Shown in pieces: positions 53,693-58,236 of a stretch of DNA of 64,000 nucleotides. The notes beneath the pieces are model-generated. The model was not told the origin of the DNA. It saw only the letters and a program-made list of their open reading frames with translations, and did not search any database. Source of the DNA: Callorhinchus milii (Eukaryota); assembly GCF_018977255.1 (NCBI RefSeq), contig NW_024704751.1:6386001-6450000 (forward strand), given 5' to 3'. Both the position numbers and the translations under genes were made by a program. How positions within the stretch are numbered: the stretch's first letter is position 1; each line of letters opens with the position of its first letter.

Positions 53693-56600
53693 ATGTGGGT
53701 GTGGGTGGCAATGGTCTTCCTGCCTTTCCACGGGCGAGGATTTGGCCAGTGCTCGCTCCTACCAGGCTCAGGGCAAGGGAGAGAGACAGCGAGAGTGGGG
53801 GGCAGAGAGGACAACCCGCACATGGTCAGGGTCCTGGTCAACGGCTCTCGCTGCGCCCAGTTGACTCTCTCCGGCCACCGGCGGGTCCTGGTGGAGATCT
53901 CAGACGGCCTGGAGATGGTCAGGTCCACGATGGAGCTGGACCCGGTGGCGGGGGTGGGGGTTGGGAGGATGGTTGGGTGCTCGCTCACCCGGCACCCAGA
54001 GGCGGTGGGGACTTTCACGAGGTCCTGCAAGGCCAAGGAGGATGAAAGGGGGCGGGAGGGGGTTCTCTCTGCCCTGGGGGAGCAGGGCTGGAGGCTACAC
54101 ATGGAGATGGAGGGGGAGATCGGGCGCTGTAGGTCCTTCCAGCGTGAGAGAGCGGCTCTGGCCACTACCCGGACCTGGCCCCCGCAACCGAGAAGTTTTG
54201 CGGAAAATTCTGCAGAAAATTTTGCGGAAAATTCTGCAGAAGATTCTGCGGAAAGCCCTGTTCCCCACAGGGCTAAGAGGGGTTTGACTTATCCAGGAAC
54301 ACTCTGGTGCGGAATGGGGAACAACGCTGACACTTACCAGCACCTGGGTAAGAACCTGCATCAATTAATATGCTTTATTAAAAAAAATGTCCCAAATTTG
54401 CTGTTTTAAATTATAATTTATATATATATTTTTTAAAAAATCCGCAAATCGTCACGTAACGTTTTGCCATCATTCTTTTATGACCATTTCCCTCCCCCTA
54501 AAACATTTCAAATCACTGGGTAACTTTTAGGGATAATTCTTTCGTGATCATCGTACCAAAGAAAAAAAGGTCATGTGAAATTTTTTTTTTTAATTACAAT
54601 TTATATTAAAAATCTCGAATCGCCGGGTAACTTGTCATGAGAATTGTTTCATGATCACTTGAAAACATCTCAATTGAGGTCTAACTTATGTTTAAATCAT
54701 AATTAAGATTAAAAAAACATCTCAAATTGCTGTGGAACCTTTTTCATAATTTATTATGAATAAGTCTCAATTGCTGTGTAAATTATAATGTAATATATAT
54801 GATATTATACCAAAAAAAAAATCCACAGACCTAAGCAGTTTGAGAGCCAACACAATGCTTATTCCTAATCAGACTTGGAGCCCAGTTTATTTTTAATCTA
54901 TTTAAAAAAATGTTTGGGGGTGTGGGGGGGGGGTAAAAAAAAGTTTTGAACTTTTGTCAAGTTTGAGTTATTGGGGAAATTATTCTTGGGTGAGGGGAGG
55001 AGAAAGGTGATTGGAACTGATTTTTCAGAGAGTCTTACTCCTCTCCCCTTTTTCTCACCCCCCCCCCCCCCCCACCTTGTCTCCTTCCCCCTCTCCTTCT
55101 CTCCCCCATCCTCTCCCTCCCCATTTCCCCCCCCCCCCAAACCAACCCCACCGTCTCTTTCTCTCTCCCCCTTCCCTCTAGAAGGATTTTGTTAATCTGT
55201 TGTGACTGCTGTATAATGTTGCTTCCTCTCCCACCCGCTTCTCCCCCCCCAAAAAAAAGGAGAATTCTCAGAAACGGACAAGTGCTGTAGAGAACATGAC
55301 CATTGTGCTCATGTCATCCATCCCCTGATGTCCAACTATGGCCACCGGAATTTCAGATGGCACACTCTGAGCCACTGTGACTGCGACAATCGGTAAGTCT
55401 TATTGCTTTATGTAGCAAACGAAAGGTGATTAAAAACGACCAAGTAACCACGTCCGGGTTGGTGGTAGTCTCGGGGTAGATGCCACGGAAAATGATTTAG
55501 AATGCGGTCCGCAGTTTGAGGCTGGCGCCCGCAGTCACGTTGTGCAATTGGCTGCCGCGTTTCGCCCACAAAATACGCAGTCAATTCACTTTACGGTACG
55601 TGCTGCGAAGCGCTTTGAGACGTCTCGAAGACGCGATATGGCGCTACGTCAAATGCAAGAGTTATTATTATTGTCTCTCACCTTTCTGAGGTGTAAGAAA
55701 GTCAACAGCAACAGCAGCGACAACTTGCATTTATATAGTGCCCTTCATGTGGGGCAGCGTCTCAGAGTGCCTAACAGTGGCGGAGCCTGAAGCCGAGCCC
55801 GGGGGAGAGAGGAGGTGACCGTACGCACGGTCAAACAGGAAGATCTTTGGTCGGAAAACCAGGGAAGGAGGAGGGATTGGGGGATGAGAGTTCCAAAGCT
55901 TCGGGGAATAGTGGTTGAGAGCAACAACTGCAACTTGCATTGATAAAGCGCCGCTCACGTGGAATGATCTCCCTCCTCTTCCTGTTTTCCTAATGAGGCA
56001 ATACATTTTTTTTGCGAGTGGGCAAAAAAATTAAAGGTCCGTAGTCAGCGAGTCCGCACACACTTCTGCTTGCTGAGAATAAATGTGTCGTTACCATCTG
56101 TAACTGATGCTGTATTTATATTTCTACTCAATTATACATACAATGAATGGTTTGAGTTTGACCACGCAGGAATTATAGGTACACGATAACTATATTCGGT
56201 CACTTAATCCACTACTGTTTGTGGGGCACTGTTGTGTGCAATTGGATGCCGCGTTTCGGCCACAAAATACACAGTCACTACACTTTGCAGTATATCGTGT
56301 GAAGCGCTTTGAGACGTCTTGAAGATGTGATAAGGCGTTATATCAAATGCCAGGATTATTATTCATTATAAAGGCCAGGATATGAAGGAAAGAGAAATGG
56401 GAGGAATATTGAATTTTGGAAATTCTAACATTTGGAATGATTCCCCTCCCCCTCCCCTCCCTACCCCCACCCCCCACTCCCGGCAGATTAAAACAATGCT
56501 TAAGAGATGTGAATAATACAGCCTCCAGAGTGGTTGGACAAGCCTTCTTCAACGTGTTGGGGGTGCCATGCTTTGACTTTGTCTATGAAGAACAGTGTGT

Positions 56601-58236
56601 GGAGAGGTACTGGTACGGATGGTGAGTTGACTCCTTAATCTAATGGATCGATCCTAGACATTGGGTGAAAATAATCTTTGGTGGGGAAGGGGGTCTGAGT
56701 AAAATTTAGTTAAATATTGGTTATTGATGAGGAATTCCTGGTTACATCTGAAAAGAAGTTTTTGCTCATTTGTGCCTACGTGAGTGGGAGTCATCCCAAT
56801 CGGCTCCTGTTAACTCTGCAATGGCCTTTAATGGGTAAGGTGGTCCTAGCTGTACAAGAAGCAGGAAACTTTGCCAGACATTGCTATCAATGGCTAGCTG
56901 TGTGGTTTTAGCTGGTTAGACTCAAGCAGTTACCCCAACACACACTCTGGGTTCCCCAAGCCTTGGCTCTTGCCGACCTGCACCTAATACTTTCCAGAGT
57001 TAGGTAAGCAAGATGCGTCCTTCCAGGGAGAGAGTGCGCATTCCATTCCAACAATCTATCTCTGGGATTCCCCCCAAAAAGAGCAAGATCTGGTTTCTCA
57101 TTGGCTTTCCTGTTGCTTTTTAAAGGTGCAGGAAGTACGATCGGGTGCCCATCGCTGTCCCCAGAGATTCTGTTCTCTATGACTACGGGGGAGACTTGAT
57201 TGATGACCTAATTCTGAGGCCAGAGCCTGGTTCGGAGGAGCCCATGACCTTGCCCCCGGCCAGCATTCCCCCGGCATTTACAGCGGCTCCAGGATCTGCC
57301 AAGGCAGAGCAGTCGACTCTGGGTCAGATGCTGAATGTGGCCGAGGATGTCCTCAAAGTCATGGCCACCGTCACCCAGAGCTCGGCCCATTGCAACGATC
57401 CGGGCGGCGCCACGGGGACTGACGAGCGCAAAGCGTCCGAGAAGGGCAGGAAGAAGGAGAGGAAAGGGAAGAAAGGCAAGAAGAGGAGGAAGGGCAAAGG
57501 GAGGAAGAAGCATCGCAAAGCCAAATGCAGCACGTCTACCAATCGCTTCCCGGGCCTGGAAGACCAGGGAATGCAGAGCAAGAACTTCCTGGGTGAGGTG
57601 GAGAAGATTGGAAGTGACAAGCACCTCAAGCAAAATGTACTGGACAATTCCTTGCAATTGGAGAGAAGCGAAGATATATTCAACCATGTGATGAACGACG
57701 ACCCCTACAGGGCTCAACCCATGACTCCAACTTCCCAGACGTTCACTCAAGCGGTCTTGAAACCAGACACCAACTTTCACCTTCGCACGGTGGAAAATCC
57801 CGCACCTAGAGAGACGACAACGAACCCTAAGCTTTACCACCAGGTCCCCACCGAGTCAGTCCAAAAGCGAGGTCATCTGGGTGGATTCGTCAGTGATGAG
57901 ATACTGTCACTCGTTGAGGAAGGTCCCAACTCCAAGGCCGTCCAGAAAGGGACTTCTGCCAAAACGCTTCTCAAGGCCACAGCCCACAAAGAGGAGCCTC
58001 TCGCCCCGTTGGATGTTCGTCGGAATCTTAAGCTGGTGGAAGGCGGATCGAAACTCGAAGCCAACCATCCCGCCCACGCCTCGCAGCAAAGCAGAGGCAA
58101 GAATCGGAAACAGCGTCGCAAGGGCAAGGGAAGGAAAAAGCACCGTCAGAAATCACAGCAGAAAAAAGGACTTGGTTTTACTGAGCACACCTCCGTCTCC
58201 CGGGGCAAGACCGCTCGCAGCGAACTCGCTAACTAG
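53693..58236 (+). CDS. PROCA1: PROCA1 orthologue / group III secreted phospholipase A2-like protein, 677 aa. Exons 53693-54347, 55260-55392, 56487-56621, 57126-58236.
   Basis: [18 protein letters not shown] (Ca-binding loop), [11 protein letters not shown] (catalytic His-Asp), [36 protein letters not shown], and a Lys-rich tail. Open over 2034 nt. Position and orientation between RAB34 and SUPT6H match PROCA1. Confidence 0.92.

Follow-up and report, generated by a model that had tools for sequence, protein, structure and literature searches.

The analyzed DNA was a 64,000-nucleotide stretch of the genome of the chimaera Callorhinchus milii (assembly GCF_018977255.1, contig NW_024704751.1, positions 6,386,001 to 6,450,000, forward strand), hereafter referred to as the window. 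A four-exon gene of 677 codons (2034 nt, TAG stop) was identified on its plus strand within 53693..58236 (Table 1). This gene is an orthologue of PROCA1 and an old paralogue of PLA2G3, which encodes a group III secreted phospholipase A2 (sPLA2). Its introns are of phases 1, 2 and 2, with GT..AG borders in all three, and the spliced 677-residue product is P0001, a C. milii UniRef entry named 'phospholipase A2'. The length of 677 residues given in the preliminary description of this DNA, which had been made from the letters alone, was confirmed; the frame, described there as a single one, is spliced from four exons and is not continuous. The three exon joints were present in contigs of two sequencing runs (X5 and X6, from two studies), which were presumed to be RNA; this nature was guessed, as no run is recorded as RNA. 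In the contigs of the other two runs compared, none of the three joints was found. The 83 nt upstream of the start codon, as covered by one contig, contained no ATG.

Table 1. Coordinates of proca1, its encoded elements and other features of the window
Feature	Coordinates	Strand	Remarks
proca1 exon 1, coding part	53693..54347	+	codons 1-219: leader, N-domain, linker, RAKR, mature N-terminus, Ca2+ loop; absent from placental PROCA1
Predicted signal peptide, residues ~1-18	53693..53746	+	hydropathy only
PLA2G3-type N-terminal domain, residues ~44-160	53822..54172	+	hhalign 97% to PLA2G3 N-domains
RAKR, residues 193-196, furin-type proprotein-convertase site (predicted)	54269..54280	+	abuts PLA2 domain
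Ca2+-binding loop GTLWCGMGN, residues 202-210	54296..54322	+	aligned to bee-venom PLA2
proca1 exon 2	55260..55392	+	H231 55295-55297, D232 55298-55300, D261 55385-55387
proca1 exon 3	56487..56621	+	third helix with F283, sequon N272, start of C-terminal hairpin
proca1 exon 4	57126..58236	+	PLA2 domain end (C309), then mostly disordered tail
proca1 3' untranslated region	58237..58734	+	covered by spliced contigs; single polyadenylation hexamer at 58715
RPL23A exons	11636..13986	-	synteny marker upstream
Rab GTPase, two exons	24015..24811	+	upstream of proca1; family level only
Near-identical copy of 48822-59348	38200..48827	+	10.6-kb tandem block; second proca1 copy ~43170-47720 with frameshifting indels
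SUPT6H last coding exon	63682..63924	-	tail-to-tail with proca1; E 1.7e-29 to SPT6 C-terminus

Domain architecture and active site of the chimaera protein

The elements named in the preliminary description were all located in the chimaera protein, namely, a hydrophobic leader (best 9-residue Kyte-Doolittle mean 2.34), a PLA2G3-type N-terminal domain (N-domain), RAKR, the Ca2+ loop, the ten-residue catalytic-site motif DxCCxxHDxC (residues 225-234) and HCDCD (residues 257-261). The hairpin segment ERYWYGWCRKY occupies residues 302-312. By hhalign (probability 97%, E 1.2e-10), the N-domains of the chimaera protein and PLA2G3 are homologous. RAKR is the sole R-x-K/R-R sequence in the whole protein, and the Pfam domain PF05826 (Phospholip_A2_2; 125 bits, E 1e-36, cut-off 22) begins directly after it. 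Among the non-placental protein sequences (rows) collected, R-x-K/R-R followed by G[FL]TYPG was found in 124 of 128, and the N-glycosylation sequon N272 was kept in 122 of 128. The last ~350 of the 677 residues form a mostly disordered tail with two conserved Lys/Arg-rich blocks. In the linker before RAKR (54193-54250), about three copies of a short repeat unit of 12 residues were observed, with none in the aligned shark and ray orthologues.

Alignment to the bee-venom group III PLA2 (E 3.4e-21) was gap-free across the Ca2+ loop and both catalytic helices, with W205/G207/G209, H231, D232 and D261 aligned to bee-venom W8/G10/G12, H34, D35 and D64, respectively; the roles given here to the active-site residues are those of the bee-venom enzyme. 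The two proteins share the fold (bee-venom structures 1POC, 8PIH and 8PKC), the Ca2+ loop, the His34/Asp35/Asp64 equivalents and the register of the mature N-terminus, whereas the chimaera protein differs by an identity of ~33%, by Phe (F283) at the Tyr87 position, as in PLA2G3, by the added N-domain and by the 350-residue tail. The ten core cysteines had the same spacing in the chimaera protein, in opossum and wallaby PROCA1, and in jerboa and platypus PLA2G3, and residues D225, C227, C228, H231, D232, C234, C258, C260 and D261 were invariant across 116/116 aligned PROCA1, PLA2G3 and invertebrate sequences. A venom role for the chimaera protein was rejected, with nothing in its favour and with conservation of the protein across vertebrates.

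The structure model used was built from the 116-sequence alignment; in an earlier model from 27 sequences, the core was weak and no fold match was obtained at E < 0.001. Residues 221-330 were modeled with predicted local distance difference test (pLDDT) values of 88-98, and the best fold match was the bee-venom enzyme 1POC (Foldseek E 1.8e-9; Z 14.2, root-mean-square deviation 4.0, 116 aligned residues; runner-up Z 5.5). The N-domain was modeled as five strands and two helices, with 10-residue pLDDT means of 77-96, falling to 56-65 in the inter-helix loop. It had no clear match in the PDB (best Z 5.5), no usable Atlas match and no Pfam family, which shows neither novelty nor absence. This domain was reduced or absent in the PROCA1 of turtle, bird, snake, alligator and marsupials.

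Relationship of PROCA1 to PLA2G3

In a search with the PLA2 core, the best 120 of 215 matches were mostly named proca1 (68-83% identity) and came from sharks, rays, bony fish, amphibians, turtles, birds and squamates. The core of the chimaera protein was 60-82% identical to 21 non-placental PROCA1 sequences versus 41-48% for 19 PLA2G3 sequences. Two trees of the core were constructed from rows hand-picked among ~390 collected proteins, namely, tree 1 from 61 rows × 118 columns (mixture model) and tree 2 from 38 rows × 144 columns (LG+G4). The chimaera protein was placed inside the PROCA1 clade (support 97/94 and 98/94 in trees 1 and 2, respectively), PLA2G3 formed a separate clade (90/82 and 88/94), and placental PROCA1 grouped with marsupial PROCA1 (100/97 and 99/99). 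The grouping that the preliminary description had set against its own proposal, with all intact vertebrate enzymes united and placental PROCA1 outside, was rejected by the approximately unbiased (AU) test (p-AU 0.0028).

The tails separated the two families as well. A PROCA1-specific motif resembling N-x-V-x-x-D-E-P, which the chimaera tail (exon 4) carries, was present in 98/125 PROCA1 versus 0/22 PLA2G3 sequences, while the motif of the PLA2G3 C-terminal domain was found in 0/125 PROCA1 versus 14/22 PLA2G3 sequences; the Cys-rich C-terminal domain of PLA2G3 was not detected in the chimaera tail by tail-to-tail hhalign comparison (probability 0.1%). Thus, PROCA1 orthology is based on core identity, the trees, the tail motif, the missing PLA2G3 C-terminal domain and synteny, including the neighbouring SUPT6H, and it bears out what the preliminary description had proposed. 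PLA2G3 and chimaera PROCA1 resemble each other in the leader, the homologous N-domain, the basic cleavage site, the catalytic residues of the central PF05826 domain, a Phe where the bee-venom enzyme has Tyr87, and the cysteine spacing. However, chimaera PROCA1 belongs to its own clade, shares 41-48% core identity with PLA2G3, has other genomic neighbours and carries a low-complexity basic tail in place of the Cys-rich C-terminal domain; furthermore, the intact form of PROCA1, unlike PLA2G3, is missing from placentals.

It is extremely improbable that the gene in the PROCA1 slot of the chimaera is really PLA2G3, whether as a copy or as the true orthologue, with a secondary likeness to placental PROCA1. 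Forcing the chimaera protein alone into the PLA2G3 clade made the likelihood 14-17 log units worse, yet on these short alignments (118 and 144 columns) such a grouping was left unrejected by the AU test (p-AU 0.178 and 0.096). The trees contained no chimaera PLA2G3. Neither PLA2G3 from sharks or chimaeras nor PROCA1 from monotremes was identified among the named rows. The N-domain and cysteine spacing are common to PLA2G3. On the other side, gar, paddlefish, Pleurodeles (newt) and Mixophyes (frog) each own one PROCA1-clade and one PLA2G3-clade protein, and identity, the tail motif, the missing PLA2G3 C-terminal domain, synteny and the nesting of placental with marsupial PROCA1 all favour PROCA1.

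Since gar, paddlefish, newt and frog hold both proteins in separate clades, the duplication that gave rise to PROCA1 and PLA2G3 took place before ray-finned fish and tetrapods diverged, in agreement with the ancient paralogy proposed earlier, and because the chimaera protein nests inside the PROCA1 clade, it is also older than the living jawed vertebrates. Intact proteins from lamprey (two) and hagfish (one) joined PROCA1 in one tree (92/90) and were unplaced in the other; an origin of the two genes before jawed vertebrates is therefore only suggested by the sequences.

PROCA1 in placental and non-placental vertebrates

All three motifs of the active site were found in 128/129 non-placental rows, the exception being an opossum model (P0244) without exon 1. 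Living carriers of the intact form are sharks, rays, bony fish, lungfish, amphibians, turtles, alligator, birds, squamates and marsupials; lamprey, too, has intact proteins that are PROCA1-like. The intact catalytic set that the preliminary description had ascribed to early jawed vertebrates is thus real but not limited to them. A profile of the C-terminal hairpin, compared with 1.84 billion representatives, gave 140 matches, including opossum and wallaby proteins named PROCA1, in which the leader, RVKR, the Ca2+ loop, the His-Asp pair and all ten cysteines are present. In six reptile and bird PROCA1 sequences (P0049, P0051, P0108, P0110, P0116 and P0143), the hairpin reads EPYLYVW-like in place of ERYWYGW, a change that could possibly alter the membrane-facing surface.

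The placental rows were the best 120 of 136 matches of a search with marmot PROCA1 (115 named placental proteins of all four superorders, including many isoforms, and 5 unnamed ones); eight rows without the exon-2 part were left out of residue counts, leaving 112. The Ca2+ loop was present in 0/120 rows. The catalytic His (position of H231) was kept in 112/112, whereas the Asp at the position of Asp232 was found in none, being replaced by K in 81 rows, Q in 15, R in 9, T in 5 and N in 2. The position of Asp261 held D in 88, E in 15, N in 8 and G in 1 of the 112 rows; several primates are among those with Asn, and several muroid rodents among those with Glu. Hence, the loss of the Ca2+ loop stated in the preliminary description was borne out, while of its lost His-Asp dyad only the Ca2+-ligand Asp is gone. 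The equivalent of exon 3 (third helix) was missing in 33/112 rows (isoforms P0344-P0379), which, together with the changes of the second Asp, points to a PLA2 remnant that may still be decaying in placentals.

The placental N-terminus is also of a different kind. The leader threshold (hydropathy ≥1.8) was reached in 110/129 non-placental versus 4/110 placental rows. Placental homology begins at the junction of exons 1 and 2 (G|EF), the part upstream of it is hydrophilic, and no protein-level homology between this part and exon 1 was found (hhalign probability 0.4%). Placental PROCA1 and the chimaera orthologue have in common exons 2-3, the ERxWYGWC hairpin and the Lys-rich tail, as had been described earlier for the latter two. 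Placental PROCA1 differs by the unrelated hydrophilic N-terminus, the missing Ca2+ loop, Lys for Asp beside the His, Trp for Arg two residues ahead of the His and a third helix into which 8 residues are inserted; the motif CCWRHKQC, given for human PROCA1 in the preliminary description, was found in the gorilla representative P0329. The placental stem branch measured 0.58-0.61 versus 0.08-0.17 for the marsupial tips in both trees. Because opossum and wallaby PROCA1 are intact, the loss falls on the placental stem, and 'mammals' in the preliminary description should read 'placentals'. In opossum model P0244, unrelated upstream sequence is joined to exon 2, as in placental PROCA1; this model may reflect an error of gene prediction or an alternative 5' end of early origin.

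From these sequence features, placental PROCA1 is predicted to be a non-secreted pseudo-enzyme in which the His and most cysteines are retained. Residual phospholipase activity, either Ca2+-independent or low, which would make the term pseudo-enzyme wrong, is regarded as very unlikely. It would accord with the His in 112/112 rows, with the second Asp in 88/112 and with a PF05826 match that in marmot is still above the cut-off (47 bits), and a passage of a sheep study (PMC4788919) ascribes phospholipase activity to PROCA1, without a citation there. However, neither the Ca2+ loop (0/120) nor the Ca2+-ligand Asp (0/112) remains, the second Asp has turned into Asn or Glu in the primates and muroid rodents mentioned, and the third-helix exon is missing in 33/112 rows; the label 'phospholipase activity' transferred to placental PROCA1 is likely wrong. 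In the Lys49 PLA2 homologues of viper venoms (group II), the Ca2+-ligand Asp beside the catalytic His is likewise replaced by Lys, the same lesion as in 81/112 placental rows. This is a resemblance only, since the Lys49 homologues belong to another PLA2 group, arose independently and are secreted with a Ca2+-loop region, whereas placental PROCA1 has lost the loop region and, as predicted, secretion.

As regards the chimaera protein, it is very likely, judging from its residues, that it is secreted, cleaved after RAKR by a furin-type convertase and able to hydrolyze sn-2 esters with Ca2+ via the group III His-Asp mechanism. The leader would route it into the secretory pathway, where cleavage after R196 would remove the N-domain and leave a mature N-terminus that extends one residue beyond that of the bee-venom enzyme. 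Ca2+ would be bound by the W205/G207/G209 loop and D232, and H231, supported by D261, would activate water, by which phospholipids outside cells or on the cell surface would be cut at their sn-2 ester. The basic disordered tail may anchor the enzyme on anionic surfaces or may be trimmed. On the placental stem, unrelated 5' sequence would have taken the place of exon 1, so that the leader, N-domain, furin site and Ca2+ loop were lost, and the Ca2+-ligand Asp would have changed to Lys, giving the predicted non-secreted pseudo-enzyme.

It should be noted that several points weigh against this reading. Secretion and cleavage are inferred from sequence patterns, and the Ca2+-loop region (residues 191-220) was of low confidence in the structure model (block means 46-73). 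Amino-acid-changing alleles numbered 0/5 in the core versus 8/17 elsewhere, which is not a significant difference (Fisher p 0.12). Intact matches are favoured in the census of non-placental rows because the intact domain served as the query, and the alternative 5' end may predate placentals, as P0244 lacks exon 1. Moreover, the literature search, in which subscription journals were mostly uncovered and supplements excluded, yielded no assay of any PROCA1 orthologue. The same search returned nothing on PROCA1-PLA2G3 paralogy, on the intact non-placental form or on its placental loss.

A secreted chimaera protein that keeps its residues and nevertheless serves mostly as a ligand or scaffold with weak or no lipase activity, its function lying in the basic tail or the N-domain, is considered unlikely. 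In favour of such a role, ~350/677 residues belong to the tail, which is non-catalytic and in which the basic blocks are conserved; moreover, the released product (54 kDa, isoelectric point 9.5) may stay large because the tail contains no further R-x-K/R-R. It is opposed by the nine active-site and cysteine positions invariant in 116/116 sequences, by the Ca2+ loop kept from fish to marsupials and by the placentals, in which the function changed and the Ca2+ ligands disappeared at once. The secreted-enzyme reading is preferred, and it can be placed in a wider scenario that appears on balance somewhat probable. Vertebrates would have had two group III sPLA2s since before jaws. PROCA1 would work as an extracellular enzyme in every lineage from the lamprey to the kangaroo, and a single step on the placental stem, the capture of new 5' exons together with the Asp-to-Lys change, would have silenced it; the disulphide-rich secreted fold would thereby have been relocated into the cell and put to a new use that is non-enzymatic and probably lies in the male germ line.

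The group III chemistry is already known, and automated annotation hints at the PLA2 identity of PROCA1. This database link is implicit, as Pfam assigns PF05826 to PROCA1 and UniRef calls many orthologues 'phospholipase A2'; one carp entry among the core matches bears a group III name, and therefore a carp paper may exist. In main-text term searches, PROCA1 was unmentioned both in a review of sPLA2s, which counts 11 mammalian members (PMC7603386), and in a vertebrate PLA2 phylogeny (PMC4314415); a passage of the former describes the processing of PLA2G3 to an active form consisting of the sPLA2 domain only. In passages of other papers, placental PROCA1, whose name stands for protein interacting with cyclin A1, is presented as an interactor of cyclin A1-CDK2 (PMC9830831), as a boar sperm phosphoprotein (PMC8322956) and as a male-infertility candidate (PMC13125504, citing a Proca1 knockout), and passages of chicken studies place PROCA1 in lipid pathways (PMC10379444, PMC13234239).

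The sequence comparisons make PROCA1 a well-supported candidate for a second, little-studied group III sPLA2 of vertebrates that in placentals alone was converted to a predicted pseudo-enzyme. Should it prove active, the genomes of fish, frogs, birds and marsupials harbour another group III sPLA2 that goes by a cell-cycle name; this would bear on the interpretation of lipid-mediator and pla2g3 knockout work in zebrafish or chicken, and placentals would be without a lipid-signalling enzyme still used by marsupials. The change would also represent a dated, testable switch from enzyme to pseudo-enzyme through exon replacement at the origin of placentals.

Neighbouring genes and the duplicated block

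The position of proca1, with SUPT6H on one side and RPL23A and a Rab gene on the other, corresponds to that of PROCA1 in mammals, where its neighbours are SUPT6H and RAB34/RPL23A. The Rab gene upstream of proca1, identified to family level, is probably RAB34. Between the Rab gene and proca1, two minus-strand exons (31062-31310 and 33854-34117) resembling adenine phosphoribosyltransferase were observed, with a weak PDB match (E 0.16) and a motif like that binding phosphoribosyl pyrophosphate. The human RAB34-PROCA1 interval is not known to contain such a gene, and its loss may be tied to the changed 5' end of placental PROCA1. In the rat, a passage of PMC3441220 places Supt6h, Proca1, Traf4 and Nek8 in one interval.

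The two copies of the tandem block were 98.7-98.9% identical, with an N gap at the matching relative place. In its exons, the upstream proca1 copy showed indels amounting to 12 bases, along with 6 substitutions; 4/6 of the substituted letters were alleles in the sequencing runs, and none of the exon indels was listed in their contigs, which drop rare variants. The runs support the proca1 copy at 53693..58236. The upstream block is most likely a second haplotype assembled with errors, that is, a false duplication and not a pseudogene; a true tandem paralogue was judged less likely. In addition, a tandem repeat array with self-matches of 88-91% identity was observed at 28633-29243.

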